A DNA stretch of 64,000 nucleotides from a virus, in IMG/VR virus record IMGVR_UViG_3300010883_000011, positions 21,773 to 85,772 of that record. One strand, 5' to 3'. Both the position numbers and the translations under genes were made by a program. Every line of letters starts with the position of its first letter. Position 1 is the stretch's first letter. Below are positions 45,744-61,352 of this stretch, one piece after another. A model generated the notes under the pieces. That model searched no databases. It was given only the letters and a program-made list of their open reading frames with translations, and was not told the origin of the DNA.

Positions 45744-45897
45744 CGCTGAAGCTACAGCCGGTAGTTGCATGGGGGGCCGCGTCCTCGACACGCGGTCCCC
45801 CACTTCCGTTTTGACGGCAGAAGAAATACGATACCGCAATCCGCCTGTCTGTTGATTGATTTGTGGTCGTGGCTGCTATAACAATTCGGAGGTAGAC

Positions 45898-46560
45898 GTG
45901 GCTTCAAAGTTCCTGGTCACCGGGACCGGGAGGTCCGGTACATCGCTGGTGATGCAGTTACTGACCGCTTGCGGTGCGGATACGGGGTACGCGGGTCCGT
46001 TCAAGACTTGGTACATGCCGAACATGGGAGGCATGGATCGGGATCTGCATACAAAGATGACGCCCGAAGAAGTCGCAGAGCTTCCGTCTGTCGTCAAAGA
46101 CCCACGCGCTTGTAGACGTTTACCGCACCTATTGGCGAACGGGATCTATAAACCAGACCACGTCATTGTCTGCGTCAGAGACATCCGTGAAGCCACCTTG
46201 TCCTTCATGAGCGCCAACAACATCTGGTACCCGGATGACCCGGATGACCCGGACAGCTTTCGTATGGGGAGCGTGGAGGGTGTGGGGCTGCAAAATCCTT
46301 ATACGCACATATCCGACTGGCTGCGTCAGGTTCTTGGGTCTTTGTTGGAAACGCTTGTGGTACATGACATCCCGTTCACAACCGTTGCCTTCCCTCGTTT
46401 CGTTTCCGAACCCGACTACCTGGAGAGGAGACTGTATGAGAGCGGTGTCTTCGATGCCGATGATGGCCTGTCCTACTTCTGCCCTGTCCAGACATTCCGT
46501 AAGACCTTCTCCGTCTACGCGAACACCGACAACGTAAATCTGTGGACAGATGAAAAATGA
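45898..46560 (+). CDS. Sulfotransferase-family (P-loop) protein
   Basis: LVTGTGRSGTSL (5'-PSB-like loop), VKDPR, VRD......S (3'-PB-like). Confidence 0.7.
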   Translation: MASKFLVTGTGRSGTSLVMQLLTACGADTGYAGPFKTWYMPNMGGMDRDLHTKMTPEEVAELPSVVKDPRACRRLPHLLANGIYKPDHVIVCVRDIREATLSFMSANNIWYPDDPDDPDSFRMGSVEGVGLQNPYTHISDWLRQVLGSLLETLVVHDIPFTTVAFPRFVSEPDYLERRLYESGVFDADDGLSYFCPVQTFRKTFSVYANTDNVNLWTDEK

Positions 46561-48110
46561 GTAAGCGTTGGATGCTAAGACACGGCGACTGTGTAGCGGT
46601 GATGAAGCGACTGCCAGCAAATACAGTTGACGCCATCGTCTGTGACCCCCCCTATGGCCTCGCCTTCATGGGAAAGGAATTTGATTCTCTCGGGGACAGC
46701 AAGGCACAGCAGGCTTGGCACCTACGCTGGGCACGGGAGGCATTCCGAGTATTGAAACCAGGAGGAATGCTTCTGGCCTACGGTGGCACGCGCACCTACC
46801 ACCGCCTTGCCTGCGCCATTGAGGACGCTGGCTTTGAGATCCGGGACAGCATCTCCGTGCATGGATGGTCGTTTAGCCATCTGGACTGGACCTATGGTGA
46901 GGGGTTTCCCAAATCATTATCTGTTAGCAAGTCCATTGATAAACGTCTTGGGAAGAAGCGTCGTGTTGTCGGGAGCAAGCGTCTCGCTGGCAATGCGGCC
47001 ATGCCCATCTCCGATAAGGGCGGCACCTATGGGGTTGGAGTAGGCACGGCTCCAGCCAAGGACGTTCCAATCACGGTAGCCGGCTCCAAGGAAGCTGCTG
47101 CCTGGGAGGGGTGGGGCTCGCAGTTGAAACCAAGTCATGAGCCGATTTGTATGGCTCGCAAGCCGCTTGAGGGAAGCGTGGTTGACACCGTACTCAAGCA
47201 CGGCACCGGCGCGATCAACATCGATGCCTGCCGGGTACCGCACACTGGCGATGTGGACATGGACGCCGTCCAACGCCAGCAGACAGATGCCGCCATCGAC
47301 TTTGGTGGAGCAAGCGCGGGGGATGTTCTCCCTATGTATAAGCCTGGGGGTAGGTGGCCTGCGAACACGCTCATGATTCATCATCCGAATTGTACCGTGG
47401 TCGGGCTACAGCATTTCAGAACAGGCGCACCACAAGAAACCTTCGGCCCTGGCAACGCCAACGAGGTCTTTGGAGAGTTTGCAGAGGGGTTCAATCAGGC
47501 GTCACGGTACGGCGACGACAATGGCCTTGAGGCGTCCCCTGTGTGGGACTGCGTGGATGGATGCCCAATTCGGTCCATGGACGAGCAGACTGGCGTTTTG
47601 AACGGTCGTGGCAACACTAAGCCGAGCAGTGGCGGCGGCGGGATGTATGGTCACGGCAAGATCGATGTTGATTGGGGCGCGAGTGAATCGGGTGGAGCTT
47701 CCAGGTTCTTCAATCAGTTTCAGTATGAACCCGGTGAGGTTCCGTTTCTTTACCATTCGAAAGCCAGCAGAAAGGAGAGGGAGGATGGCTGCAAGGGCGT
47801 GAATCCATTGTCCGGGTCCGGGGTTGGTGGTTCAGAAGCCAGTGGCAAGGTTCACAACAACCATCCAACCGTGAAGCCGATTGGCCTGATGAAGTGGTGC
47901 GTGGACCTTTGCGTAGGGGGGAGGAGGGGAGCGTTCATCGTTGATCCGTTTGCCGGGAGCGGGACAACCGGAATCGCAGCCCTACGATCCGGGGTCCGGG
48001 TTCTCCTGATAGAAAAGGATGCCCATTATTGCGACATCATCCGACGCCGAATGGAACACGAAGAAGATCAGCAGCTACAAAAGAAAAAGAAAAGAGGACT
48101 TGACTCGTAA
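46557..48110 (+). CDS. DNA methyltransferase, beta class (N4-C/N6-A)
   Basis: DPPY near the N-terminus, HPTVKP, DPFAGSGTT near the C-terminus. Confidence 0.92.
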   Translation: MSKRWMLRHGDCVAVMKRLPANTVDAIVCDPPYGLAFMGKEFDSLGDSKAQQAWHLRWAREAFRVLKPGGMLLAYGGTRTYHRLACAIEDAGFEIRDSISVHGWSFSHLDWTYGEGFPKSLSVSKSIDKRLGKKRRVVGSKRLAGNAAMPISDKGGTYGVGVGTAPAKDVPITVAGSKEAAAWEGWGSQLKPSHEPICMARKPLEGSVVDTVLKHGTGAINIDACRVPHTGDVDMDAVQRQQTDAAIDFGGASAGDVLPMYKPGGRWPANTLMIHHPNCTVVGLQHFRTGAPQETFGPGNANEVFGEFAEGFNQASRYGDDNGLEASPVWDCVDGCPIRSMDEQTGVLNGRGNTKPSSGGGGMYGHGKIDVDWGASESGGASRFFNQFQYEPGEVPFLYHSKASRKEREDGCKGVNPLSGSGVGGSEASGKVHNNHPTVKPIGLMKWCVDLCVGGRRGAFIVDPFAGSGTTGIAALRSGVRVLLIEKDAHYCDIIRRRMEHEEDQQLQKKKKRGLDS

Positions 48111-48128
48111 CCCTCCATAGGTTACTAT
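48067..48128 (+). promoter_or_regulatory. Cassette promoter P1
   Basis: ATCAGCAGCTAC, A-tract, TTGACT-17-TACTAT with TAAC-N9-GTTA at 48108-48124. Confidence 0.8.
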
Positions 48129-48169
48129 GTATATAGAAAACAGACCTCCACACCAACAGGGGAAATGCA

Positions 48170-48586
48170 ATGTCGCAAACAAGGAAACGATTGACACCGC
48201 GAGAGATTGTGGCGATTTCGAAGGCGCTGGATACCAAGCAAGTTTCAGCAGCCAGGGGTAAGCTCGACGAGAACCGCACTTACCAAGGCTCGGTTACTGT
48301 CACCGTCGACTACTCGCTTGCCGTGGGGGAGGGGTATACCCAGGAGAGGTTGGCGAAGGGTGTTGACCCGTGGGCCATCATCCACGTTCTACAAGAGAAG
48401 CTGAAAGAGGTTCAGCCGAACCACAGCACCCGCCGAACCATCAACAACGCACAACGGGTAGCTGCTAAAGCCCCGAAAGATGTCAAGCAGACTCGGAACG
48501 ACTTTCAGTCTGCCATGACCAGGGAAAACCTGACCGTCAACGTCAGCGCCCCGGCAAGCTGTAGCGCGGAGTTGACCAAGGTATGA
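48170..48586 (+). CDS. Hypothetical early-type protein
   Basis: Follows P1 with CCAACAGGGG leader. Confidence 0.65.
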   Translation: MSQTRKRLTPREIVAISKALDTKQVSAARGKLDENRTYQGSVTVTVDYSLAVGEGYTQERLAKGVDPWAIIHVLQEKLKEVQPNHSTRRTINNAQRVAAKAPKDVKQTRNDFQSAMTRENLTVNVSAPASCSAELTKV

Positions 48587-48801
48587 AACCCGAACACGCT
48601 CATCAGATTGTCCAGTGGCTATCAGAGAATAGAATCCACGCGTATGTCTACCATGACTACAGTGGACGCGGCATGTATGGACGCACCACGGCTGGGGTGG
48701 TGACCCACAACGTCACCGACGTTTTCGAAGCGAAGGGAGCGTTGAAGATTCACGACGACTTCGCACGCGACAGCATGGGGCTTGACGCCATTGTCTACTG
48801 A
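48583..48801 (+). CDS. Small phage protein with YSGRGMYG motif
   Basis: YSGRGMYG...D.MG...IVY; ATGA coupling. Confidence 0.65.
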   Translation: MKPEHAHQIVQWLSENRIHAYVYHDYSGRGMYGRTTAGVVTHNVTDVFEAKGALKIHDDFARDSMGLDAIVY

Positions 48802-48823
48802 ACAAAACACCGGCGGGTTGTCT

Positions 48824-49018
48824 ATGAAGCACAACCGCGTCTTCGTGAAGCTCGCGCTCAATCGGTGGGCCTTGCCGAACGGCATCAGCGAAGCCGCCGT
48901 CAAGGAATACATGGACGAGTTTGAGCACCAGGACGGCTATGAATGCTGGATAGGGTACTTCGACGATATGAACGGTATCATCGAAGACTTCAAGCTCTAC
49001 ATTGAGCATTCCGACTAA
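48824..49018 (+). CDS. Small acidic hypothetical protein
   Basis: Operonic ORF. Confidence 0.5.
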   Translation: MKHNRVFVKLALNRWALPNGISEAAVKEYMDEFEHQDGYECWIGYFDDMNGIIEDFKLYIEHSD

Positions 49019-49116
49019 GGGGGGAGAGGGGGGTGCAAGATATGGTGCGCCTGCCTACTCGACATGGCACCTGATTCCGCTATTATCAAGGTGACGTGTC
49101 TGCGCGGGAGAGCATT

Positions 49117-49422
49117 ATGTCGTTCGAATTTACGGCTGCCCACCTCGGCAAACTTGCCTCTTGGGGTCTTCCTATGGTCTTTGTCGCGGGTGGTCTTTAC
49201 ATCACTCTTGAGGCACTCGCCCATGACGTTGACAAGATCTCGGCACGCCAGGAAACGCATTTAGATCTGGAGGGGCACCCGGTATCACAGGTGCGAATCG
49301 AAGACTTGTCGACTCAACAGACAGACCTGATGCTTGAACAACGAGGAATGCGGGAAGATCTCGCAGAGCAGGCGGTGAACATTGCTGCCATTTGTCAAGC
49401 AACGGGAGCAAGCTGCCGTTGA
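49117..49422 (+). CDS. N-terminal TM plus coiled-coil protein
   Basis: WGLPMVFVAGGLYI then heptads. Confidence 0.55.
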   Translation: MSFEFTAAHLGKLASWGLPMVFVAGGLYITLEALAHDVDKISARQETHLDLEGHPVSQVRIEDLSTQQTDLMLEQRGMREDLAEQAVNIAAICQATGASCR

Positions 49423-49442
49423 GCAGGGAGGGGGGGGGATCT

Positions 49443-49796
49443 ATGGGCGATGGGTACATAGATCAACTGTTAGACTTGGGTGCGCTCGGGCTCTTTGCTA
49501 CGTTTCTGATTTGGCAGTTTATCAAGATGCAAGACCGTCTTGATAAGTTAGTCCAAGACTTCCAAGAGCAGATCCGTGAGATCGACTCGACGTATGAACG
49601 CCGCGTAGAGACTATGCGTGAGCGATACGACATTGTCATTCAGAAGTACGACGGTGAGAGGCGGCTGCTGTCTGAACGTCTTGGGCATTCGGTAGAAGAT
49701 AGCCATGATAAATTGGATCGAGCGTTAGCTAAACTGGACGAAGGCTTACGCGAGATGCGTGCCCACTATAGACGGGGGGAGGGGGTAGACAAATGA
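49443..49796 (+). CDS. N-terminal TM plus coiled-coil protein (BhlA/holin-like topology)
   Basis: LGALGLFATFLIWQF then charged helix. Confidence 0.55.
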   Translation: MGDGYIDQLLDLGALGLFATFLIWQFIKMQDRLDKLVQDFQEQIREIDSTYERRVETMRERYDIVIQKYDGERRLLSERLGHSVEDSHDKLDRALAKLDEGLREMRAHYRRGEGVDK

Positions 49797-50041
49797 AAAC
49801 GGATCCGAAGACTATATTGATCGGTGCGTTTCTGTTGGCTGCAACCGGGGCGGGGGGGTCCATGATCGGACTCACAGTGGAGCCACAGGAAACCACTGAA
49901 ATGCGTGTTAGCAACGCTATGCTTGAAACACGGAACGAGTCTCTACAAGAACAGGTTGACAGGTTGGAGGCTCGCGTAGATGTCCTGGACGGAATCGTGA
50001 AGGAATGCCAGTCAATCATCATGGCGAACCAGTCGCCGTAG
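49793..50041 (+). CDS. Membrane-anchored coiled-coil protein
   Basis: Hydrophobic N-terminus, heptad repeat. Confidence 0.55.
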   Translation: MKTDPKTILIGAFLLAATGAGGSMIGLTVEPQETTEMRVSNAMLETRNESLQEQVDRLEARVDVLDGIVKECQSIIMANQSP

Positions 50042-50049
50042 GAGAAACA

Positions 50050-50319
50050 ATGAAACGATTTACGGTTGCGTGTTTGCTTATTTGCGCGTTTGCGTATGGC
50101 CACATCGGGGGGGAGGGGGTAGCGGAGGCACAAGAGCCGTCCCTCCGAGAGCAGCTACAGGCGTGCCAGGATGAACTGCGTACCGCGAGGTCTGCGATTG
50201 AACGCATCGAGAACCCGGACGTGTTGATTCAAGCGGAGCGTATTCAGAACCTGGAACAGATGATTCAGGACGCTTATGCGACGCCGCCCGAGACACCCCC
50301 ACCCTCTTCTGACGATTAG
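50050..50319 (+). CDS. Secreted or anchored coiled-coil protein
   Basis: GGAG SD, MKRFTVACLLICAFAYG signal. Confidence 0.55.
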   Translation: MKRFTVACLLICAFAYGHIGGEGVAEAQEPSLREQLQACQDELRTARSAIERIENPDVLIQAERIQNLEQMIQDAYATPPETPPPSSDD

Positions 50320-50438
50320 AAACAGCGGCTACAAAAGGCATACCCAGGGGGGAGGGGTATGCAGATGGTCGTCCACCTCGCCGTCCGCTATAACGGTGGT
50401 GAGGGCTCCTCAATCGTTGTGCCCCCGGAGGGCTACCC

Positions 50439-50918
50439 GTGTCCGATACCCCCACCCCCCTTCCGCACTCTGGAAACGCATCCCAAAAAAACGAAGGGGG
50501 GGGGAGGGGGGGGCACGCCCTGGACGCCACCCTCACGTCCTCCCGTGTGTGTGGTTCGTGTACGGCATGTTGCACGGTGCTGAAAGTCGACGAGATTGCC
50601 AAGGAAGAATACCAGCCGTGCGTTCACCTCAAGGCCGATTGTACCGGTTGCTCGATCTATGGTACGCGGTACGAGATATGCCGTGTGTATAAGTGCGCTT
50701 GGTTGCTCGGTGCCTGGGAAGAATCCGACCGACCGGACAAGCGAGGCGTTCTCACGCAAGAGCAGGTCGTGAACGGTGAGTGGACTGGTGCCATCGAATT
50801 CGTAGAAGTTGTCCACGGCAAGCTGGCGTCACCAGCGGTTCGAGCCATGATCGATGCGGTGAGCGGGAGCGGCTACAAGGCTATTCTAAAGGCTCGACGC
50901 TTCGTCAGCCGGGACTGA
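50439..50918 (+). CDS. YkgJ/CxxCxxCC cysteine-cluster protein
   Basis: CGSCTACC...C.HL....C.IY..R...CR.Y.C.W; start uncertain. Confidence 0.75.
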   Translation: MSDTPTPLPHSGNASQKNEGGGRGGHALDATLTSSRVCGSCTACCTVLKVDEIAKEEYQPCVHLKADCTGCSIYGTRYEICRVYKCAWLLGAWEESDRPDKRGVLTQEQVVNGEWTGAIEFVEVVHGKLASPAVRAMIDAVSGSGYKAILKARRFVSRD

Positions 50919-51705
50919 CACCGGATTCCAGGCCGCAGGGGCTTGTGGCGGCACCCAGGGGGTTTGCATCGGGTGTTCTTGGGAATCATGCCACGCCTTT
51001 CGCCGGGGGAATCCAAATCTCGTTCGTCCCGGAAACGCTTGTGCCGGGGTGCCTCGGGGCGGTTTCCGAATCTCGTTCGTGCGCGATCCGAATCTCGTTC
51101 GGAAAACGCTCGATTGAATTTCCTTGCGATGAAGACCACTTTTGATTCCCAGGGAAATGCGCCAGAAGTGAGAGCGAGCGAGCGTCGCGCATTCTTTGAG
51201 CGGTTGCGTCGTCTTCTTGAGCCAGCGCGTTTTCTTCGTTTGCGAAGCGCACTCTGGCCGAAACGCTCGATTGAATTTTGCTGGGTTCACTACCGGTTTT
51301 GCCCCGGGGGGGAAATGCGTTTCACTACCGGGTTTTTTCCTCTCGAATCGTTCGAGCGCAGCGGTCGCCGTGTCAAGAGCGCGTATCAGAAAGTTGCACA
51401 TCGCTCGCACCTCTCGACGCTTTCGAAGGGGCGTCTCGCCGTGTCAAGGGCGCACAAAACGCTCGAAAGCGGATGAGGGTGGATGGCGACCCGTCAAGAC
51501 CCGCGAGCGACTCCCATTTTCCGAGCGCATTGGCAAGGACTTTTCTGCGCCGCGCTTGCTTTTTTACAATCCGTCCACCTCGCCGAATCAGCAGCTACGA
51601 GCCGCGAGGCGACTCCCATTTCCGACGCGCATTGGCAAGGACTATTCTGCGCGAATCGAATCTTTTACATCTGGTAAAAAACCCAAGGCATCCCTCCCTA
51701 CGGGT

Positions 51706-51735
51706 ATTATAACACGCTCAGTGTTAGAAAGGCAA
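51706..51735 (-). promoter_or_regulatory. Leftward promoter R1 with TAAC-N9-GTTA
   Basis: Minus strand TTGCCT-18-TATAAT. Confidence 0.65.
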
Positions 51736-51894
51736 GCGGCGCTCAAAAAGAAAAGCGATTTATTTTGCCGTCCACCTCGCAGAATCAGCAGCTACGAGAG
51801 CCGCGGCGACTCCCATTTTCCATGCGCGTTGGCAAGGATTTTTCTGCGCGATTCGATCTTTTTACATCTGGCCGAAATCGCAAAGCGTCACCAG

Positions 51895-51924
51895 ACGATA
51901 ACATGCCTCCGGTTAGAAAGTCAA
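51895..51924 (-). promoter_or_regulatory. Leftward promoter R2 with TAAC-N9-GTTA
   Basis: Minus strand TTGACT-18-TATCGT. Confidence 0.55.
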
Positions 51925-52091
51925 TCGCTGATTGAAAATAAAAGCGATTTCTTTTCCCGTCCACCTCGCAGAATCCGGTTAGCAGCTCCCTTCGGGTCGA
52001 CGCGAATCAGCAGCTCCGAAATCGCGCCAAGCGACCAGAATCGCAGGACAAAGGGGGACGCAGAAAAAAGATCTTTTCTTTTCGAAAAGGG

Positions 52092-52119
52092 TAGACACTA
52101 ACCCTGTCTGTGTTATTAT
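52092..52119 (+). promoter_or_regulatory. Cassette promoter P2
   Basis: TAGACA-16-TATTAT with TAAC(52099)-N9-GTTA. Confidence 0.75.
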
Positions 52120-52125
52120 GTATAC

Positions 52126-52509
52126 ATGGAAGCAAGGAACACCAACCGAATCGAAGCCGCAAACACCGCAACCGCAGTGCTTTGCTACCGCCCCGAAAAC
52201 AAGAACTTTGACGCGGACAACATTATCTCCGTGGCAATCGAAGTCAGTTCTGATTGGAGCCTCTCCGAAATCCTCGCCACTGCAATCGCAAACGTCGCAG
52301 TCCCGAAGGGCTCGGCTCGCAGCGGTGTCTTCCAGGTTCAGACCGTCGAAGGCATTTTCGCACATGTCAACGAGCGAAAGATTGACCTCTCGTCCGACCG
52401 CAAGGCAGCGAAGGTTCTGTTTGCATCTTGGGCCGCCATGGCCGCTTTCGAAAACGCCAACCCCCTCTCCGAAGTCGACGCTTTCGATGCAGTCGCAAAG
52501 GCTCTCTAA
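52126..52509 (+). CDS. Hypothetical early protein, possibly leaderless
   Basis: ATG 7 nt after the -10 hexamer, no SD. Confidence 0.6.
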   Translation: MEARNTNRIEAANTATAVLCYRPENKNFDADNIISVAIEVSSDWSLSEILATAIANVAVPKGSARSGVFQVQTVEGIFAHVNERKIDLSSDRKAAKVLFASWAAMAAFENANPLSEVDAFDAVAKAL

Positions 52510-52510
52510 A

Positions 52511-52690
52511 ATGGCCGACCGAATCCATCCCGCAGTCATCGAGCAAGCCCGACGCGACCGCGAGGCCGACCGCTTCGAACGCAGTCAAATCCCGCTGCAC
52601 CGCCCGCCGCCACCGCCGCCCGCTTTTGACCCGAAGCCGCAGTCCGAAAATCGGCAGCGCGGATCGGTCATCGTTGACCTTTCAATCTAA
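52511..52690 (+). CDS. 59-aa Pro-rich protein ending RGSVIVDLSI
   Basis: ATG immediately after the previous stop. Confidence 0.55.
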   Translation: MADRIHPAVIEQARRDREADRFERSQIPLHRPPPPPPAFDPKPQSENRQRGSVIVDLSI

Positions 52691-52710
52691 CCCCAACACC
52701 AAGGCATCCC

Positions 52711-52866
52711 ATGCACCCCAACACGCACAACCGCTCTTCCAGAATCGAAGATCTGCTGCTCGACGAAGTCAACTCCCCGCTCTACCTCGGCTTCTTCAGC
52801 GCACTCACAATCGCGTATCTCGGCGGCTGGGGCTCGGTGCTGTTGCAGGTCATCGCGCTCGCGTAA
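52711..52866 (+). CDS. 51-aa membrane peptide (not in ORF track)
   Basis: CCAACACCAAGG leader; ...LYLGFFSALTIAYLGGWGSVLLQVIALA. Confidence 0.55.
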   Translation: MHPNTHNRSSRIEDLLLDEVNSPLYLGFFSALTIAYLGGWGSVLLQVIALA

Positions 52867-52950
52867 GCGAAAATCCAAGATTTACTCCAAGCCCCTGGGC
52901 ATGGGCTTCAACCAAACTGCCCGCCCCACCAACACCAAAAGGTGACTCCC

Positions 52951-53157
52951 ATGGTTTTGATTCGAAATCAAGTAGAATTTGCGATGCACGCAAAAGTCCA
53001 CGTTGAAGCATTCAACGCGGGTCGCACCGACGCCACGCGCTTTGTCGAAGCCGTCGCTGGTGACTGCGCCGCGCTTGTCGCGTTTCAGAATTTGTCCGAG
53101 CCTGACAAGCTCGCGCTGAATACGCTTTTCGGCGGTCCGCCGATTCTGCTGAAGTAG
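52951..53157 (+). CDS. Small hypothetical protein
   Basis: CAACACCAAAAGGTG leader. Confidence 0.55.
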   Translation: MVLIRNQVEFAMHAKVHVEAFNAGRTDATRFVEAVAGDCAALVAFQNLSEPDKLALNTLFGGPPILLK

Positions 53158-53185
53158 AGTCGCGCATCGCTCGACCGCCACCGCA

Positions 53186-53215
53186 CCCCGCGCAAGCGGG
53201 GCTGCTCGCGTTTTT
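53186..53215 (+). terminator. Hairpin terminator-like element
   Basis: CCCCGC-GCAA-GCGGGG followed by a downstream T-run. Confidence 0.5.
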
Positions 53216-53318
53216 GCGGGTCGCGTTTGGCGGCGTCCACCTCGCAGCAGCCCGGCAAAATCCGTCCACCTCGCCACGCCATCCGAGCGGGACCATGGCG
53301 GGCGCAAGGCGTCACCAG

Positions 53319-53439
53319 ATGATAACACGCCCGCTGTTAGAAAGTCAATCCCCCAAAAAGATAAAAAGCGATTTCTTTTGCGACCGGCTTTGGAGCAAGG
53401 CGTCACCCTACGATAACACGCCCGCCGTTAGAAAGTCAA
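53319..53439 (-). promoter_or_regulatory. Tandem leftward promoters R3 and R4
   Basis: TTGACT-18-TATCAT and TTGACT-18-TATCGT on the minus strand, each with TAAC-N9-GTTA (53323, 53414). Confidence 0.6.
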
Positions 53440-53627
53440 TCCCGGATTGAAAAGAAAAGAGATTTCTTTTTCGCTTGACACGCGACGCGCCGCCCCGAAT
53501 CAGCAGCTACAAATCGGCCCGTCCACCTCGCCGCCCTAACATAGAACGCGTTAGCGGTCAAGGATTATTCTGCTCTTTAGCAGCTCCAGGGCTGAAAAAG
53601 AAAAATGCATTATTCGCAAAATAAGTG

Positions 53628-53655
53628 GAGACTCTAACCTTCGTTGGGTTATAAT
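53628..53655 (+). promoter_or_regulatory. Cassette promoter P3
   Basis: GAGACT-16-TATAAT with TAAC(53635)-N9-GTTA; upstream A-tracts. Confidence 0.8.
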
Positions 53656-53716
53656 GTATGTACTGAAGGGGGAGACAGAAACCCTCCAAAGTACCAACCC
53701 CAACAAGGACAATCAA

Positions 53717-54112
53717 ATGTATTCCGAAATGAACCGCAGCGACCTCCGCACCGCCCTCGCAGCCGCAGGCATCGAAGGCGTCAACCGCAACAGCAAGGCC
53801 GCCATGGCCGATGCACTGACCGCCCACGACGCTGCCACCGCGAAGCCGGCTCGCTCGCCTCGCATGACCCGCGCTGACATGGCGCAGGTGCTGAAGGGCT
53901 TTATCGGCCGCAAAAAGTCCGTTGTCGTGGAAATCGCCGAAGTCGCCGCTGCTGGCATCTGTCGCTCCGGTACCCTCTACCACGAATATTGGAGTTCCTC
54001 CGACAACACCGGATTCAAGGCCGCTGCGCTGATTGGCTGTACCGCGACCCGCGTTGTCAAGAATCCCGCCACTGGCGAAGCGGGGGTTTGCCTCGTTCTG
54101 ACCCGCTCGTAG
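53717..54112 (+). CDS. Hypothetical early protein (N-terminal SAP/Rho-N-like helices possible)
   Basis: CAACAAGGA SD; YSEM.RSDLR..L...GI.G..RNSKA.M...L. Confidence 0.6.
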   Translation: MYSEMNRSDLRTALAAAGIEGVNRNSKAAMADALTAHDAATAKPARSPRMTRADMAQVLKGFIGRKKSVVVEIAEVAAAGICRSGTLYHEYWSSSDNTGFKAAALIGCTATRVVKNPATGEAGVCLVLTRS

Positions 54113-54236
54113 CGAATCGGGTTCCGGGCGGTCCCGTCAAAACCGCCCCGCTTCCAAGTAGCATCGCATCGGGCGGTGCTACCCGGAAGCGGCCAAATCG
54201 GTCGCTTTACCCCAACACTCCAACAAGGCAAAAATC

Positions 54237-54305
54237 ATGTTCGCGCTTATCCTGGTCCCCTACGTTTCTTTGGCAATCTTTGCGGCATCGCTCGCCACCG
54301 CGTAA
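54237..54305 (+). CDS. 22-aa hydrophobic peptide (not in ORF track)
   Basis: CCAACAAGG leader; MFALILVPYVSLAIFAASLATA. Confidence 0.5.
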   Translation: MFALILVPYVSLAIFAASLATA

Positions 54306-54420
54306 GCGGCAATCCCAAATCCCGCGCCTCGGCTTCGTCCGGGGCGCGGCTCGTTTTGCCTTCGCACTTCGGGTCCGTCCACCTCGCACGCCGACCCGCG
54401 ACCCGTCCACCTCGCAGGCC

Positions 54421-54503
54421 GAATCAGCAGCTACAAATCGGCCCGGAAAAAGATTGCGCTTTCGCAAAATAAGTGGAGACTCTAACGCAGTCTGTGTTAC
54501 TAT
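54421..54503 (+). promoter_or_regulatory. Cassette promoter P4
   Basis: GAATCAGCAGCTAC...GAGACT-16-TACTAT with TAAC(54483)-N9-GTTA. Confidence 0.8.
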
Positions 54504-54528
54504 GTAGATACCAACAAGGGAGTTCAAC

Positions 54529-54777
54529 ATGGCAAACGCACTCAACATCGCACAGGTCTTTCAGGCCGCGTTCGGCGACGACAACACCGCACCCGGTTTC
54601 TTCTACCGCGTCGGCGACGCAGCGGGTCTGTCGAGCCGCCAAATGATGTCTTTCGGTCGCTGGTCCGTCGACACCGAATGCGGCGCGGCTTGCGAAATCG
54701 CAATCCACGAAGCCGTCGCCGATGGCCGCAACGCCTTCGACGCCATGACCGCAATCGCCACGCTGGTTCTCGGATAA
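54529..54777 (+). CDS. Small hypothetical early protein
   Basis: AAGGGAG SD after P4. Confidence 0.65.
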   Translation: MANALNIAQVFQAAFGDDNTAPGFFYRVGDAAGLSSRQMMSFGRWSVDTECGAACEIAIHEAVADGRNAFDAMTAIATLVLG

Positions 54778-54803
54778 TCTAAACCAACAACAAGGGGCAA
54801 ACC

Positions 54804-55004
54804 ATGTCAAACACGCACCATTTGATTCTGACCTATACCGATCCAGATACGGGCGTCGAAGTCCGGCTTGGCTTTGATGATGGCGACCCGCGCCGGGTCC
54901 ACTGCATTAACAGCGACCGCACCGAAGCCTTTTCAGCGTCGCTTGACGAGGCACTCGATTCGCTGCTGGCTCGATGGCCGGACCTGAAATACGCAATCGA
55001 TTGA
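54804..55004 (+). CDS. Small hypothetical early protein
   Basis: CAACAAGGGG leader. Confidence 0.6.
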   Translation: MSNTHHLILTYTDPDTGVEVRLGFDDGDPRRVHCINSDRTEAFSASLDEALDSLLARWPDLKYAID

Positions 55005-55168
55005 GTCGCACTTCAGGGCTGCTCGACCCGCTCGCGCTTCGGCTCGGGCGGCTTCGGGCGTTTTTGCCTCGCGCATCGAGCCCGTCCACCTCGCACGGCC
55101 CCGCCAAAATCCGTCCACCTCGCGTTTGCGATTGCGGCCGATCTGGTTTTTTCGCAAGGCGTCACCTT

Positions 55169-55291
55169 ATCATAACATGCCTCCGGTTAGATAGCTCCGC
55201 CTGAATCAAAAGAATCAGCAGCTACCTCGTGCGAAAAAGATCGCACTTTTCGCAAAATAAGTAGAGATTCTAACGCACACGGTGTTATAAT
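55169..55291. promoter_or_regulatory. Divergent pair R6 (leftward) and P5 (rightward)
   Basis: TAAC-N9-GTTA at 55173 and 55271; -10 TATGAT (minus) and TATAAT (plus); AATCAGCAGCTAC between them. Confidence 0.7.
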
Positions 55292-55317
55292 GTATGTATA
55301 CCAACAAGGAGAACCAG

Positions 55318-55506
55318 ATGACCAACCGCAACATCGAAATCCCGACCGACGTTCAGAACGACAACACCGTGCAGGATGCAGCGTGGCGACTGCGCCAAGC
55401 CATCGACTCCCACGGCGAAGGTCACCCGATTGTGGTCAAGCGCGAAGCCCAGCTACAAAGCTGGATTGACCATTCCAGGGCCGCTACAATCTTTCGAAAT
55501 AGTTAG
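55318..55506 (+). CDS. Small hypothetical early protein
   Basis: AAGGAG SD; stop codon lies inside the next promoter module. Confidence 0.6.
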   Translation: MTNRNIEIPTDVQNDNTVQDAAWRLRQAIDSHGEGHPIVVKREAQLQSWIDHSRAATIFRNS

Positions 55507-55533
55507 AGACTCTAACGCAGACTGTGTTACTAT
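55506..55533 (+). promoter_or_regulatory. Cassette promoter P6, near-identical to P4
   Basis: GAGACTCTAACGCAG(A/T)CTGTGTTACTATGTAGATACCAACAAGGGAG shared with P4, one mismatch. Confidence 0.8.
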
Positions 55534-55558
55534 GTAGATACCAACAAGGGAGAGCGCA

Positions 55559-55876
55559 ATGACCACTCACTTTCACTCTTACGAAGCCAACGAGCGGCAC
55601 GAAGCCGCCATGCTGATCTGTGCCCCGACGGGGCAAAACAACGCTGCCCGCGCATTGGTCGGTCGAGCCATCCGCAAGGCGCTCGGTGTCAAGCGTTGGA
55701 ACGAAGGCATCCACTTCGTCGACTACCTGCCTGCCGGGTACGGCTACCCCGACGCCGACGCGCGATTCATGGTCAACGTCACCGACGCCGAAATGACGCG
55801 ACTCATGACCACGCTGACCGCGATGGCCGAAGCCGAGGGCTGGGACCGCCCGCCATGCGACGCATATCACGACTGA
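55559..55876 (+). CDS. Hypothetical early protein
   Basis: AAGGGAG SD after P6. Confidence 0.65.
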   Translation: MTTHFHSYEANERHEAAMLICAPTGQNNAARALVGRAIRKALGVKRWNEGIHFVDYLPAGYGYPDADARFMVNVTDAEMTRLMTTLTAMAEAEGWDRPPCDAYHD

Positions 55877-55957
55877 TTCTGGTCGGTCCACCTCGCAGGG
55901 CGCGTTGGCAGCGCCTGCGAGGCGCAAAATAAAAATGCACTTTTCTCAAAATAAAGG

Positions 55958-55985
55958 GAGACTCTAACGCACATGCGGTTATAAT
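55958..55985 (+). promoter_or_regulatory. Cassette promoter P7
   Basis: GAGACT-16-TATAAT with TAAC(55965)-N9-GTTA. Confidence 0.8.
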
Positions 55986-56011
55986 GTATGTACCAACAAG
56001 GAGAACACAAC

Positions 56012-56257
56012 ATGGCAAACCGCAACCCCAACCGCCTCTTCCTCATCGTTCACCCCGAAGTCGACCCGCAGGCTCCAGGCAGCGAGGGTATGTCAGCAGC
56101 GTTCGAACGCAACAGCGACGGCGAAATCCTCCGCACCCGCAACATTGAAACCGCCCGCAAGTGGCGCGACCGCCGCAACGAAGGCGTGGACCTCGGCGAG
56201 CCCCTTTTCTTCATCCTCGCAATCACCGCCGATGGCAGTCAGCAGCGAGCCGCGTAA
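56012..56257 (+). CDS. Small hypothetical early protein
   Basis: AAGGAG SD after P7. Confidence 0.65.
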   Translation: MANRNPNRLFLIVHPEVDPQAPGSEGMSAAFERNSDGEILRTRNIETARKWRDRRNEGVDLGEPLFFILAITADGSQQRAA

Positions 56258-56328
56258 GCGACGCACCGGCCCCGTCCACCTCGGGCGGGGTCACCCCAAC
56301 ACCAACCCCAACAGCAAAAGGCAACACC

Positions 56329-56604
56329 ATGCGAATCACATCGACCGGACCCCGAATCGTCCGCACCCCGTTTCAGCGGGCCAATATGCCCTACCTTCTG
56401 GTCATCGATTCCGAAGGCTTTGTGCGATATCGCATTGACAAAGCCGCAAACGGCCTCGCCGCCAAAGCCCCGTTCCGAATCTACCGCACCGATGCTTCGG
56501 GTAGGTACCACGGGCGGGCACTCACTCTCGTTGGATACGCAAAGGGCATTGCCGATGCTCGGCGACAGGCAGAGGCACTTCCGCTGGATAGCCTCGGCCG
56601 ATAG
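56329..56604 (+). CDS. Small basic hypothetical protein
   Basis: CAA-rich leader with AAGG. Confidence 0.6.
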   Translation: MRITSTGPRIVRTPFQRANMPYLLVIDSEGFVRYRIDKAANGLAAKAPFRIYRTDASGRYHGRALTLVGYAKGIADARRQAEALPLDSLGR

Positions 56605-56748
56605 CGACGCACCCAAGCTGCTGACCCCGCTCGATTCAATCGGGCGGGGCTTCGGTGGTTTTGTCCACCTCGCGGACCCGGCGCAGAATCCGTCCACCTC
56701 GCAGAACCGCGTGCGAGCCGCTGCTCGTTTTTCGAGAACCGTCACCCT

Positions 56749-56906
56749 ATCATAACATGCCCCGTGTTAGAAATCTCCACCGAAAGCACGAAAAGTTTTG
56801 GCGTCCACCTCGCCCCAGATGGCGCGTTTCAGCAGCTACAGGCCGCAAAAGAAAAATGCACTTTTCGCCAAATAAGTAGAGACTATAACCGACCCTGGGT
56901 TATAAT
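56749..56906. promoter_or_regulatory. Divergent pair R7 (leftward) and P8 (rightward)
   Basis: TAAC-N9-GTTA at 56753 and 56886; CAGCAGCTAC between them; TATAAT at 56901. Confidence 0.7.
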
Positions 56907-56936
56907 ACATGTATACCAACCAACAAGGGAGTTCAC

Positions 56937-57377
56937 ATGGCAAAGGCAAACGAAAACAACCGGGGCAATAACAGGAACGGAAGCAACTGGATCCGCAAGG
57001 ACCTGCGCTTGGCCATCTACCTGCGGGACAACATGACCTGCGTGTTCTGTAAGACCCACGCCGACAACACGACGCTGACGCTTGACCACGTCGTGTCCCG
57101 CTCCGAGGGCGGGTCCAATGGGACCCCGAATCTGGTGACCGCGTGTCGCTCGTGCAACAGCAGCCGCCAAGACATGCCCATTGCCGACTTCGCAGCCCGC
57201 TTCGACGGCGCAGCCCAACGGGTCGCCACCGCAATCAGCACGACGCGGATCGAAATGGTTGACTACCGCAACACCGCGAAGGGCATGTACGCCGACCCCG
57301 CAGAGAAGGCCAAGATCGACGCGATGCGAGCACGGGCTTCCTGTTCCTGGAAGTCCGAGCACGCGTGGCGCAAGTAG
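56937..57377 (+). CDS. HNH endonuclease
   Basis: R.AIY.RD...CVFC, LDHV..RS.GGSN...NLVTAC..CN. Confidence 0.92.
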   Translation: MAKANENNRGNNRNGSNWIRKDLRLAIYLRDNMTCVFCKTHADNTTLTLDHVVSRSEGGSNGTPNLVTACRSCNSSRQDMPIADFAARFDGAAQRVATAISTTRIEMVDYRNTAKGMYADPAEKAKIDAMRARASCSWKSEHAWRK

Positions 57378-57450
57378 CAGCGGCCTCGCGGCTCGGTCCA
57401 CCTCGCGGGCCGAGCCGCAAAATCAATCTACACTTTTCGCCAAATAAGTA

Positions 57451-57478
57451 GAGACTATAACCTGCCCTGGGTTATAAT
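57451..57478 (+). promoter_or_regulatory. Cassette promoter P9, near-identical to P8
   Basis: CACTTTTCGCCAAATAAGTAGAGACTATAACC..CCCTGGGTTATAATACAT shared with P8. Confidence 0.8.
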
Positions 57479-57512
57479 ACATACAACACCAACCCCCAAC
57501 AAGGCGAACAAC

Positions 57513-57620
57513 ATGACCCCCTTCATCGCAATGACTTGGTACCTCGCAACTTGGACCATTGGCGCACTCAGCGGCGTCGCAATCTACGGTGCAGCCACCT
57601 CTCGCAGCGCACGTCGCTAA
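57513..57620 (+). CDS. 35-aa single-TM peptide (not in ORF track)
   Basis: CAACAAGG leader; MTPFIAMTWYLATWTIGALSGVAIYGAATSRSARR. Confidence 0.55.
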   Translation: MTPFIAMTWYLATWTIGALSGVAIYGAATSRSARR

Positions 57621-57631
57621 AGGCAATCCCC

Positions 57632-58060
57632 ATGGCAAAACGAATCCCCATCCCTTGCTCGTCGTGCGACCGCCAATGTCTCGGTCGACGCACGACCCGT
57701 GGCACCCCGCGAATCCTTCGCCTGTCCGAAGTCAGCCGTTCGGCCATCTCGTCCGAGCCTGTCTGCCTCAACTGCTCGTGGCAACACCAAGCCGCGATCC
57801 TCCGCTGCGATACCGTCGCCGACTTGGAAGCCCTCAAGGCCGACCCGTCCATAGCTGCTCGTTTTCTGATCGACTCCCTTCAGGGGGACGCCGACAGGCT
57901 TCGCCAAATCGAAGGCCGGCTTGCTGCCGAGGTCTATGCGAGCAGGCACGAGCACGCCAGGGCAGTGGCACAGGCGAGCGACGAGCCACTGCTGCCACAA
58001 ATCCCCGTGCCATGCGAGCATTGCCTCTATGTCGAATGCGCCTGCAACGTCGCCGATTGA
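57632..58060 (+). CDS. Cys-rich hypothetical protein
   Basis: CSSC, CLNC, CEHC...CAC. Confidence 0.6.
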   Translation: MAKRIPIPCSSCDRQCLGRRTTRGTPRILRLSEVSRSAISSEPVCLNCSWQHQAAILRCDTVADLEALKADPSIAARFLIDSLQGDADRLRQIEGRLAAEVYASRHEHARAVAQASDEPLLPQIPVPCEHCLYVECACNVAD

Positions 58061-58066
58061 CTCGCG

Positions 58067-58716
58067 TGCTCAATAGTTGAACACGGCCCCGCGACTCTCT
58101 ATCAGGGTAGCGGGGCCGCTCTTCGTTTGACCCACGCATCGGTCCACCTCGCCCACGCAGATTGACCACGCACCACGGACCAAACAATTTCGGGCGTTTA
58201 GCGGAGACATGGGGGCTGAATAGTGGTAGGGGGACAGTCCCGAGGTCCGATGGACCGCCCCAGAAAACAGCGAACCCGCGCACGAGCAAGGGCGTCGCTG
58301 CTGGTAGTGAGTGGGTCTGCGCGTGTTCAATAGTTGAACAGGCCGCGCATGGGGCATGGGGCACGCGAAAACTTTTGGCGCACTTCGTTTGTGCCTCGCG
58401 CTTGGCCCGTTGCGTCGCTGTCCACCTCGCCATGGCTTGGGCGTCGACTGTCCACCTCGCTGCGAAGGTTCGAAGCGTCCACCTCGTTTGGTCCACCTCG
58501 CAGATTTCTGGCGTCGAGCGACGCTCAATACGCGGTCGAGCCGGGGCGCATGGGGCGTCGCACTTCGTTGCGCTGCTGCATGGGCGGTGCGTCGCATTGA
58601 ATGGGCATGGGGGCGCGGGCAGTCCCCAAAAGGAAACGCGGTGCATGGGGTGCGAGCGTGTTGCTCGATTTGTAGCTGCTGATTGATTGTCGTCGAGCCT
58701 GCTCAATAGTTGAACA
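58067..58716. repeat. Palindrome TG(C/T)TCAA-TAG-TTGAACA, three copies
   Basis: 58067-58083, 58324-58340 (perfect) and 58700-58716. Confidence 0.85.
58084..58128 (+). terminator. Hairpin closing the cassette array
   Basis: CGGCCCCGC...GCGGGGCCG stem followed by CTCTTCGTTT. Confidence 0.55.
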
Positions 58717-59278
58717 CGCACCAGCATGGCCCATGGGTCTTGGCGTCGCGCTTCGCTGTGCCCTGGGCTGGCTGGGCCGCTGTCCACCTCGCAGCCTTGT
58801 CCACCTCGCCGCTTCGCTCGCCGCTGCGCGACGCACACCGCTCGCTCGTGCGCTCTTGACACGTCGCCTTTCACGCCACAAAGTCCAGTCAAGATTTTCG
58901 GACAGTGCGTCGTTCATTTATGCCCAACGCTCTTCAGCGCAAAAGTGTATCGCTTTCTTGCACACGCAATTTTGCCGTGCTTCGTGCGACGCACCGACGC
59001 AATTTGTCACAACGCTTTGCAACCGCGCTCCTTTTGACCCAACTTTGTGCGCCGCTTTCTAAGTGCCTGCTATCACTCACCTTTTTCGGCGCTCTCTTCG
59101 CAAGTGCGTCGCACCCCCACCGCACCAAGTTTTCGCGCTCTTCGTTTATTACCTGTAGGAGTCCTCTCGCGCAGTGCCTCACCAAAATACCGACTTGGAT
59201 TTTTTGTAAAAAACGCGGGGGTGCGCGAGTATCTGCGTGGGGTGTGAGTGGGTTATGATGCTGGAGGAGGAAAACCCT

Positions 59279-59645: not shown

Positions 59646-61352
59646 GTGCCTGGAGGTTCTGAGAACTACCACTACCTGATGGCACAGGTATCGCACGACT
59701 ATCCCCTGCTGGGGTTGGCCTTACAGCGTCATGTGAACACGCGTGGTCTTCCCTTGTCCTTTGAACACATGCCGTACCTCATTGAGTTGTATACGGACTT
59801 CCCCAAGATCGATGGAGCCGACATCTGCAAGGCTGTGCAGACTGGTCTATCGGAACTGATGATTCAGTTGATTCTGGAGCGAGCCGGTTGGCAGGGTCGC
59901 GTGACCGCGTATGTGCTCCCTACCTTCACGATCCGAGACAGGTTCGTACAGAACCGCATCAACCCCCTACTGAACATCGTGCCTGACTACCGTATGAGAG
60001 CGGGACTGACAGCGGGTCGTCAGGGAAGTACCGGTAACCTGAAGCTGAAGAGATTTGGTAATGGTGCGATGATGTTCTTGGGTTCCAACACTGTGGGTGA
60101 CTTTGTAGAGTTCTCTGCTGATGTTTTGATTATTGATGAGTTTGACCAGTGCGACCCGCAGAATCTCGCCAAGGCACGAGACAGGTTGCGTGCTTCGCCG
60201 TACCCTCAACTCTTTCGGTTGGGGAACCCTACCCTCCCCCGTGTGGGTGTCTCGCGGTTGTTTGACCTGTCTGACAGCCGTAGGTGGTTCCATCGTTGTA
60301 GCAAGTGCAAGGAACGTCAGCCCATCGACTGGTTTGAGAGTGTTGTGGAGCGTGACGATGATGGTGCGTGGGTGCCCCGCGATAAGGCGAGGCTAAACCC
60401 TGCGTCGGGGGACATCAGGCCAATGTGTCGGCGATGCAAGGAACCCTTCGAAAGAACCGCCAAGGACGCGGTGTGGGTAGCTGAACACCCGGACAGGGAA
60501 CGCCGTGGCTACCTGATTAGCCGCTTGGACGTATTGTCTGAATCCTATCGCCATCTTTTCGCGGAATGGAAAAACGCACAGGGAACGTCGGAGTTGCTGT
60601 CTGCTTTCTACTGTTCCGTGTTGGGCAAGCCCTTTGAGTTCTCCGGGGCACGCTTGAACGTCGAGCATCTACAGGACGTGGCTACTGGTGAGGTGGTGGA
60701 CTACGCAGGGGGCGAGGAGTACCGCAACCACATTGTCACGATGGGAGTTGACGTAGGGGCGCTACTACACGTCCACATAAGCGTTGTAGAGGAGATGGAG
60801 AACACGACACCGATTCAGACACTGGACGGGGAGCTTCCCCCTGAACCGAAGACCATGCGCCATTGTGTATTCACTGGCACGGTGAGGACTTTCGGGGAGG
60901 TGGCCGACATGATGCGCCGGTACCATGTTGACGTGTGCGTGATCGACTCTATGCCCGAGACTCGTAAGGCCCAAGAGCTACGCGATGAGTTTTACGGTGG
61001 TGACTCCCAGGTGTGGCTCTGTAGGTTCCATCCGACCGCGAGAGTGGCCCGCCAGGAGTACGGCTTGAAGATGAACTACCGCGACAACACGGTCATCGTG
61101 GATCGCACGCAAGTCTTCGACGCCACCTTTGACGACATCAGGCAACGTCGACGAAAGTTTCCCGAAGACGTGTTCACCGTGTTGGGATGGTCAGAACAGA
61201 TGCGGTCATCTGTGCGGGTGTTGGATGAACAGAAGCAACGGATCGTTTGGAGCGAGGGTGGGTCTGCTGATCACTTCAGGCTGTCGGACATCTACGACCG
61301 GATCGCCCACGACATCACGCAGAAGGGTGGTTCCTACTATGCAGGGCAGTGA
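59646..61352 (+). CDS. terL: Terminase large subunit (lambda GpA-like)
   Basis: KAVQTGLSE Walker A-like, IIDEFD Walker B, GNPT, CSKC/CRRC zinc motif, MGVDVG and DH nuclease residues. Confidence 0.88.
   Translation: MPGGSENYHYLMAQVSHDYPLLGLALQRHVNTRGLPLSFEHMPYLIELYTDFPKIDGADICKAVQTGLSELMIQLILERAGWQGRVTAYVLPTFTIRDRFVQNRINPLLNIVPDYRMRAGLTAGRQGSTGNLKLKRFGNGAMMFLGSNTVGDFVEFSADVLIIDEFDQCDPQNLAKARDRLRASPYPQLFRLGNPTLPRVGVSRLFDLSDSRRWFHRCSKCKERQPIDWFESVVERDDDGAWVPRDKARLNPASGDIRPMCRRCKEPFERTAKDAVWVAEHPDRERRGYLISRLDVLSESYRHLFAEWKNAQGTSELLSAFYCSVLGKPFEFSGARLNVEHLQDVATGEVVDYAGGEEYRNHIVTMGVDVGALLHVHISVVEEMENTTPIQTLDGELPPEPKTMRHCVFTGTVRTFGEVADMMRRYHVDVCVIDSMPETRKAQELRDEFYGGDSQVWLCRFHPTARVARQEYGLKMNYRDNTVIVDRTQVFDATFDDIRQRRRKFPEDVFTVLGWSEQMRSSVRVLDEQKQRIVWSEGGSADHFRLSDIYDRIAHDITQKGGSYYAGQ

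Follow-up and report, generated by a model that had tools for sequence, protein, structure and literature searches.

The stretch of DNA considered here ("the window") covers the final 64,000 nucleotides (positions 21,773 to 85,772) of one viral contig of 85,772 bp with 55.6% G+C, IMG/VR record IMGVR_UViG_3300010883_000011, and contains an interval of small plus-strand genes between a DNA methyltransferase gene (46557–48110) and the gene of a large terminase of the lambda GpA type (59646–61352), in which every gene, or pair of genes, is preceded by a promoter of its own, of a repeated type. This report concerns a second set of repeated elements in the gene-free spacers of this interval, i.e., leftward promoter modules (P_L) with no gene behind them. 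Positions are those of the window; where "genome" is added, they are those of the whole contig. The other window genes identified were a primase/helicase, helicases, a DpdA-like gene and an endolysin; none of 20 proteins tested from the small-gene region was assigned to a Pfam family. DNA of the phage was present in 18 sequencing runs, from marine and seawater metagenomes.

The dyad TAAC-N9-GTTA (N9, any nine nucleotides) occurred 16 times in the window, compared with 0.29 ± 0.62 times in shuffled sequences, and 20 times in the 85,772-bp genome. The 16 sites comprise nine rightward promoters and seven leftward or orphan sites; the latter were found exactly where a first-pass annotation of this DNA had placed them (51710, 51899, 53323, 53414, 53537, 55173 and 56753). 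That annotation had interpreted most of them as minus-strand promoters, and the sequences bear this out: four sites are complete, with TTGCCT or TTGACT, a spacing of 18 bp and TATAAT, TATCAT or (twice) TATCGT, their -35 elements matching the consensus in 5/6 positions (51899, 53323, 53414) or 4/6 positions (51710). Weak elements were also present as described, namely a poor -10 at 53537 (TAGGGC) and poor -35 elements at 55173 (2/6) and 56753 (TGGAGA, 4/6 at 19 bp). A -10 of the form TAT..T (4–6 of 6 positions matching) was present in six of the seven sites, 53537 being the one that fails, and TG at -15/-14 in all seven. When the same sites were read on the plus strand, -35 matches of only 1–3 of 6 positions and -10 sequences of the TAGAAA type were obtained. 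A consensus promoter scan of the region yielded 15 matches, four P_L copies included, versus 4.5 ± 2.1 in shuffled sequences. With a hidden Markov model constructed from six copies, a search of the whole genome recovered exactly those six (E 3e-25 to 4e-19), and 53537 was absent from the matches. On these sequence grounds the six sites are best described as one family of ~95-bp orphan leftward promoter modules of the sigma70 type, and 53537 as a bare dyad. The latter (53537–53553) reads TTGACC-17-TAGGGC on the minus strand, has a -10 in neither direction and does not belong to P_L; its distance to the rightward promoter at 53635 is 98 bp, the same as that from 55173 to the rightward promoter at 55271.

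Read in the direction of transcription, P_L consists of an A/T-rich block (AAAAGAAATCGCTTTT...), TTGACT, TTC-TAAC-N9-GT, TAT(C/G)(A/G)T and a G+C-rich sequence, GGTGACGCCTTGCG. All six copies are on the minus strand. P_L-51710 (51681–51775; nhmmer E 4e-19) has the A/T block, TTGCCT-18-TATAAT and TG; its downstream block is diverged and preceded by an 8-nt insertion. P_L-51899 (51872–51964), with TTGACT-18-TATCGT and TG followed by GGTGACGCTTTGCG, is located 189 bp upstream of P_L-51710 in tandem. The second tandem consists of P_L-53323 (53297–53386; TTGACT-18-TATCAT, TG, GGTGACGCCTTGCG; predicted start at ~53312) and P_L-53414 (53385–53479; TTGACT-18-TATCGT, TG, GGTGACGCCTTGC), the latter being a duplicate of the former with a period of 91 bp and 82% identity; scans for tRNAs and tandem repeats yielded nothing relevant except this duplication. 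In the two remaining copies, P_L-55173 (55145–55234) and P_L-56753 (56725–56817), an extended -10 (TG-TATGAT) and the downstream block (GGTGACGCCTTGCG and GGTGACGG, respectively) were kept, and the -35 and the A/T block were replaced, in P_L-56753 with TGGAGA at 19 bp. The N9 centres of the P_L copies are similar, and two are identical. As annotated previously, GGTGACG follows five sites (51899, 53323, 53414, 55173, 56753) and GGTGACGCCTTG follows three (53323, 53414, 55173). The earlier statement that no credible leftward gene is present was likewise correct, since a minus-strand open reading frame (ORF) with a ribosome site common to the copies was not found; any product of P_L would thus be non-coding. 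A protein-coding reading of the leftward RNAs was rejected, since TTG or ATG frames differ among the copies. Promoters of extracytoplasmic function (ECF) sigma factors usually have a spacing of about 16 from AAC to CGT; a reading of P_L as such a promoter (AAC ... CGT) was unconvincing, the spacing being 14 nt in the two copies which possess CGT.

The gene-driving promoters of the same genome provide the context for these modules. Two promoters at genome 9120 and 10518, both on the minus strand, consist of TTGACA or TTGACC, a spacing of 17 bp and TACAAT or TACTAT, contain TAAC-N9-GTTA and a similar A/T block, and precede genes for a 502-aa protein and a 403-aa ATPase; a further promoter of this type is found at 48108. 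Since P_L shares its chassis with promoters that drive genes, leftward firing is credible, and this resemblance is the strongest argument for P_L being a genuine type of promoter rather than a coincidental match. All nine rightward TAAC-N9-GTTA promoters have a conserved leader (GTATGTA..CCAACAAGGAG), followed by ATG; as the promoters of the cargo genes thus carry the same dyad, the co-control with P_L that had been suggested is plausible. Seven cassette promoters (53635 to 57458) lack a sigma70 -35 and have in common a 20-nt box, AAATAAGTRGAGACTMTAAC, with TAGAGA or TGGAGA. Two promoter classes can be distinguished over window positions 48108–57478 and genome 9120 and 10518, one with a TTGAC(A/C/T) -35 and one with the AAATAAGTRGAGACTMTAAC box. 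The sequence (A/T)ATGTA is found exactly 14 nt after TAAC (ATGTA 15 nt after) in 8/11 gene-driving promoters, and the combination of TAAC with the spaced (A/T)ATGTA was found nowhere else outside coding sequence; P_L copies have no ATGTA, and a good -35 where TTGACT was kept. A further motif, (GAAT)CAGCAGCTAC, occurs 12 times on the plus and three times on the minus strand (window 48069–56839 and the left arm), usually 25–45 nt upstream of the A/T block of a promoter, and remains plus-oriented even at the minus-strand promoter at genome 10518. At the rightward promoter TAGACA-16-TATTAT (52099–52128), the ATG (52126) of a 127-aa ORF is located 7 nt past the -10; its mRNA is a candidate for a leaderless transcript.

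Outside the window, at genome 3402–4091 on the minus strand, a sigma-like protein of 229 aa is encoded, with a match to Sigma70_r2 (29.7 bits; Pfam cut-off 24), a weak match in the PDB to the ECF factor SigK over regions 2 and 4, and weak similarity to a PHROG family of "RNA polymerase sigma factor". Cassette promoters without a sigma70 -35, together with a sigma-like protein of the phage, fit the notion that P_L is dependent on host sigma70 and forms a separate class. A temporal programme with two sigma factors was described for phage phiEco32, where an AATGTA element is present in promoters dependent on gp36 (PMC12276001). The likeness consists in a distant sigma homologue being encoded here, in the (A/T)ATGTA overlapping the -10 of gene-driving promoters, which recalls AATGTA, and in the orphan P_L being without the element; unlike in phiEco32, the sigma factor is only weakly similar to known sigmas (the Pfam region 2 match), and it has no sequence match to gp36. 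Reading of a phiEco32-like element by the phage sigma should be considered a lead, by analogy.

Conservation within P_L can be compared with what is expected of a promoter. In the -10, positions T-12, A-11, T-10 and T-7 are invariant (6/6), and -9 and -8 vary; the copies thus differ at positions where change is tolerated in a -10, which fits a working -10. The T-15 of TG is kept in 7/7 sites despite its position in the otherwise variable N9, as against 4/9 rightward promoters. As the main rival explanation, the sites could be extra TAAC-N9-GTTA binding sites, 90–200 bp upstream of rightward promoters, for cooperative or looping control by one regulator, or else relics of inverted promoters that recombination between cassette junctions has carried along, with any leftward RNA being noise; we consider this less likely than the action in cis discussed below, although several observations would agree with it. 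Only the dyad is shared by all seven sites, and 53537, which has nothing else, nevertheless sits 98 bp from its rightward promoter; the universality of the dyad is partly a matter of ascertainment, since the seven sites were found by a dyad search. The loss of the -35 and the A/T block from two copies would be expected of relics, and in a related contig, L008, leftward promoters of a similar kind drive real genes, such that the orphans could have remained from a leftward arm that was lost. On the other hand, T-10 and T-7, which lie outside the dyad, and TG were kept in 6/6 family members, and five copies share a downstream block that is not a ribosome site, which argues that a single orphan unit was copied and against separate losses of genes. 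Also in agreement with the binding-site or relic explanation, copy numbers of the junction motifs vary in nature, as judged from a 28-nt deletion at 54375 in one seawater run, which removes one GTCCACCTCG of the 54377/54405 pair.

What would bind the dyad is a putative protein. Among 40 small proteins compared with Pfam and 14 left-arm proteins compared with PHROGs, the only candidate, and a weak one, was a protein of 108 aa (genome 3073–3399, minus strand) with weak helix-turn-helix matches (E 0.002–0.005, below cut-offs); its gene is directly downstream of the sigma-like gene, and the protein is a putative regulator of the kind that the binding-site explanation calls for. Against such a regulator, the spacings of 91, 98, 98, 123, 133, 189 and 200 bp are not in helical phase, and the dyad shows little symmetry past its 4-bp arms (9/18 at the first inner position, p = 0.03 uncorrected). 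The lac O3, gal OE/OI and lambda OL-OR sites are known examples of auxiliary operators and of multi-site repressor systems. Similar to these, a promoter-internal site is repeated here ~90–200 bp upstream, and the genome contains many intergenic copies; the unphased spacings and the putative status of the cognate protein are differences. Mycobacteriophage L5 has a multi-site repressor system of operators and stoperators (PMC9283540); the analogy with stoperators fits the asymmetric GTCCACCTCG, with its polarity and placement, better than the dyad. Rather than an operator for a repressor, TAAC-N9-GTTA may represent a composite element of the promoter, because an extended -10 already explains G-14 and T-12/A-11, because of the weak symmetry beyond the arms, and because L008 keeps TAAC two bases past the -35 but not always GTTA.

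Every P_L is arranged back-to-back with a rightward promoter, 91–200 bp away; the rightward partners are located at 52092–52119, 53626–53655 (plus strand; opposite P_L-53323/53414), 55262–55291 (98 bp from P_L-55173, measured to 55271) and 56877–56906. At three junctions, a gene is followed on the plus strand by its terminator, two GTCCACCTCG 29 bp apart, P_L and the next rightward promoter, and P_L faces the terminator of the preceding cassette. These plus-strand terminators are a hairpin with TTTTT at 53183–53215 (cassette ending at 53157; no T-run on the minus side), a terminator at 55021–55065 (cassette ending at 55004) and a hairpin with a T-run at 56625–56662 (cassette ending at 56604). 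The GTCCACCTCG pairs, also on the plus strand, are found at 53235–53274, where the transcripts of P_L-53323/53414 would cross them as the reverse complement, at 55084–55123 (downstream of P_L-55173) and at 56663–56702 (downstream of P_L-56753). According to the first-pass annotation, leftward transcripts would cross the motif pair and reach the hairpin of the upstream cassette, resulting in RNAs of 120–140 nt. The geometry was confirmed, with predicted starts 48–50 and 77–79 nt from the two GCGAGGTGGAC copies and ~95–130 nt from the upstream hairpin; for the length there is no basis, since the hairpins have T-runs on the plus side only. No leftward terminator was predicted, the hairpins at 53183–53215, 55021–55065 and 56625–56662 not being followed by a U-rich stretch on the minus strand. 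The distance from the predicted start to the preceding stop codon is ~140–160 nt at the three junctions, and at all three a gene-less promoter converges on the 3' end of an opposite gene, an arrangement which is that of cis-antisense transcription in its geometry only.

GTCCACCTCG itself is strongly polar, with 25 copies on the plus strand versus one on the minus strand (window 45111–58808), mostly intergenic and often paired 28–30 bp apart; 16/25 copies are located outside the 160-nt stretches downstream of the leftward sites. Since the motif is polar and mostly away from leftward sites, its presence in leftward RNAs is most simply incidental. Some copies are located in hairpin loops or arms (55886, 56274, 57396), and the lone inverted copy sits in a leftward-transcribed arm.

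These relationships are of importance for the proposal that the P_L transcripts constitute a family of short non-coding RNAs with a shared body, which was not borne out, as there is no common fold, Rfam match or terminator. When the three junction units were aligned at their predicted starts, common sequence was limited to the first ~14 nt, the two GTCCACCTCG in reverse complement and the plus-strand terminator, likewise in reverse complement. Stable folding was not evident (z -0.68, -1.77 and -1.02), and the plus strands scored much the same. The consensus fold of -15 kcal/mol had a covariation term of +1.45 and gave no support for a shared structure, this being a test with three sequences and low power; in its main helix the 5' CGCCUUGCG pairs with the second box (nine pairs, three of them G-U) with no compensatory change. 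The 120-nt repeats behind 51710 and 51899 folded no better than shuffled sequences (z -0.3 and -0.4). Rfam matches were lacking at the gathering score in the window and at E ≤ 1 in 50500–58000. Sponge RNAs of the CsrB/RsmZ type are non-coding RNAs with repeated GGA-containing boxes. In contrast, each junction RNA has one ANGGA, a number at chance level (0.4–1.1 expected, p 0.34–0.67), which is not in repeated hairpin loops, and no terminator; GGA occurs 3–4 times versus 3.1–4.8 expected. The suggested sponging of CsrA thus found no support. GGA and ANGGA were at chance in four of the five RNAs tested (the three junction units and the 51899 unit); the 51710 unit was nominally high, with three ANGGA versus 0.69 expected (p = 0.03 uncorrected). 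The idea of sponge or decoy RNAs can be set aside whether or not P_L fire.

An action of the leftward RNAs in trans, by pairing of their two GCGAGGUGGAC boxes with GUCCACCUCGC of rightward transcripts or by binding of ribosomes or CsrA-type proteins, must nonetheless be weighed, because a junction RNA contains two perfect 11-nt complements of a motif found 25 times on the plus strand, because GAGGUG is a strong Shine-Dalgarno-like sequence, and because the conserved 5' CGCCUUGCG can form the helix mentioned above. We regard it as improbable: the boxes are explained by the plus-strand motif, with its polarity of 25:1 and 16/25 copies away from leftward sites, two of the nine pairs are disrupted, with no compensating change, in the 56753 copy, and neither the searches for a shared fold, covariation, an Rfam match or a terminator nor the GGA and ANGGA counts, which include all three junction units, spoke in its favour. 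A more elaborate form, in which early P_L RNAs made with host sigma70, with two GCGAGGUGGAC boxes each, would act in trans on rightward RNAs by pairing with the 25 GUCCACCUCGC boxes of their tails and hairpins, as a one-to-many antisense switch which keeps the sigma-dependent cassette genes off or marks mRNAs for cleavage until the phage sigma takes over, should be regarded as a long shot. The leftward RNAs may act as antisense.

The anatomy and membership of the family, and the absence of a gene, a shared fold and a leftward terminator, are seen in the sequence. We infer tentatively (probability roughly 0.45) that the P_L fire and act in cis through convergent or antisense non-coding transcription. 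The RNA polymerase of the host with sigma70 would recognise the six leftward modules, which would fire, probably early and with control shared with the remaining TAAC-N9-GTTA promoters. Non-coding transcripts without a conserved fold would run over the terminator and enter the 3' part of the cassette upstream. The effect would be exerted in cis by the act of transcribing and by the antisense RNA, and not by a folded trans-acting small RNA; it would insulate the upstream cassette, or silence it, and would set its balance with the rightward promoter that diverges from P_L. If P_L and the other TTGAC-type promoters are read early by host sigma70, and the cassette promoters need a phage factor, early P_L transcription would run antisense into cassettes which are not yet on. 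Several points speak against this interpretation. P_L is present at only 3/6 terminator-bearing junctions, and the leftward transcripts have undefined ends, with no terminator predicted. Conservation of P_L rests on six paralogous copies in one genome; these copies may be young, which would weaken arguments from conservation, and in two of them (55173 and 56753) the -35 and the A/T block were replaced. Modules of this type can also spread neutrally by recombination between cassette junctions. Finally, the search of sequencing runs for the phage listed 18 DNA runs and 0 RNA runs.

The lambda oop and P22 sar promoters are gene-less, convergent antisense promoters, present in single copy and with their own intrinsic terminator. 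Similarly, P_L is a predicted short leftward promoter without an ORF, aimed at the 3' end of a rightward gene; it differs in its six copies and in the absence of a predicted leftward terminator. Promoter-early stem-loop (PeSL) cassettes, which surround small ORFan genes in a hyperplastic region of T4-like phages, contain repeated strong sigma70-like promoters, which are AT-rich upstream, and stem-loop terminators; the repeats are sites of recombination (PMC2839356, PMC4122927). PeSLs are oriented like the genes and extend to the Shine-Dalgarno sequence and start codon of the gene that follows (PMC2839356). The nine rightward promoters described here have these properties, whereas P_L, which has no ribosome site or gene, does not; compared with PeSLs, P_L is inverted and possesses a different conserved downstream block, and the toolkit of this phage includes in addition TAAC-N9-GTTA and a polar 11-mer. 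PeSL cassettes and antisense promoters of the oop/sar type are, by analogy, the closest described systems. Repeated promoter-terminator modules of hyperplastic early regions of phages, as described so far, point with the genes; in this genome, by contrast, there are six copies of an inverted module without a gene, with -10 and TG kept. If P_L fire, the phage would use convergent non-coding transcription, beyond terminators, to insulate or time neighbouring cassettes, and there would be a handle for separating promoter classes of host sigma and phage sigma in an uncultured marine phage lineage. If P_L are silent, they should show how relics of promoters persist as binding sites.

P_L-51710 and P_L-51899 are located within a 1.2-kb gene-free region (50920–52125) which is dense in short direct repeats: GAATCTCGTTCG-type sequences (three or four copies), GAAACGCTCGATTGAATTT (two), TCGCCGTGTCAAG (two) and a 44–45-nt repeat on the plus strand (three; 51507, 51609 and 51806, spanning 51507–51849). 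The region is a candidate for an origin or another cis-acting region. At some phage origins, orphan promoters activate or prime replication, e.g., the T4 oriF/oriG middle promoters and T7 phiOL/phiOR. P_L resembles these in being gene-less and beside repeat-rich non-coding DNA, a likeness applicable only to 51710 and 51899. These two could be origin-associated promoters, whose transcripts through iteron-like repeats activate or prime replication, with the junction copies as duplicates that have spread. Both are interleaved with the three 44–45-nt direct repeats and face short direct repeats at 51010–51470, and the cumulative GC skew peaks at the 51710/51899 region, where the sign of the skew changes. 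This explanation appears quite improbable, since it leaves the four copies at cassette junctions unexplained, an initiator gene and an AT-rich unwinding element were not found, and the change in skew is largely an effect of codon choice in the cassette genes.

Information from relatives was limited. The nearest terminases in IMG/VR were 54–64% identical, and their contigs carry the dyad only at control frequency; closer terminases exist (proteins P0002 and P0003, 70–71% identical). Cultured phages showed no DNA match and a terminase identity of at most 26%. Pattern searches of IMG/VR for P_L, the motif pair and the rightward promoters yielded nothing or single matches due to chance; in scans of metagenomes and genomes with the motif-pair pattern, the matches listed (at least 120 loci each) contained no dyad cluster and were thus due to chance. 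The only relative with similar promoters was L008, an IMG/VR contig with a terminase of 54% identity. Within positions 1–8000 of L008, repeated promoters of the type TTGAC-N2-TAAC...G(T/C)TATA, with long A/T blocks upstream, are found in both directions, each driving genes, and diverge from a gene-free centre of ~700 bp. Contigs from four runs were nearly clonal and of low depth, with no joints or variation in P_L where covered, and are uninformative with respect to selection. Natural variants were seen at the rightward promoter at 56886, in which N9 varies and the arms were kept.

Over exactly the cassette region (window 51200–58200), the GC skew of the plus strand is -0.10 to -0.15, and it is positive elsewhere. 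The cassette genes have a G+C content at third codon positions (GC3) of 0.73 and a GC3 skew of -0.35, compared with 0.62 and -0.06 for the other plus-strand genes. This skew-flipped segment is flanked on both sides by gene-free regions of ~1.2 kb. The second of these (58060–59250), just upstream of the terminase genes, contains GTCCACCTCG eight times and GCTCAATAGTTGAACA, a palindrome of the form TCAA-N3-TTGA, three times, and is a candidate for a packaging or late-control region. Tiny hydrophobic ORFs with good ribosome sites are present in the cassettes at 54238–54306, 57513–57620 and 52711–52866 (22, 35 and 51 aa, respectively); judged from sequence, they are possible membrane peptides. A long run of G opens the contig, and a similar stretch of ~70 nt (GGCATGTCGTAGTGGTTCGGCTATGTCCGGC...) is found at both of its ends (genome 1–200 and 85570–85772), which could be due to assembly wrap-around or represent a terminal repeat.

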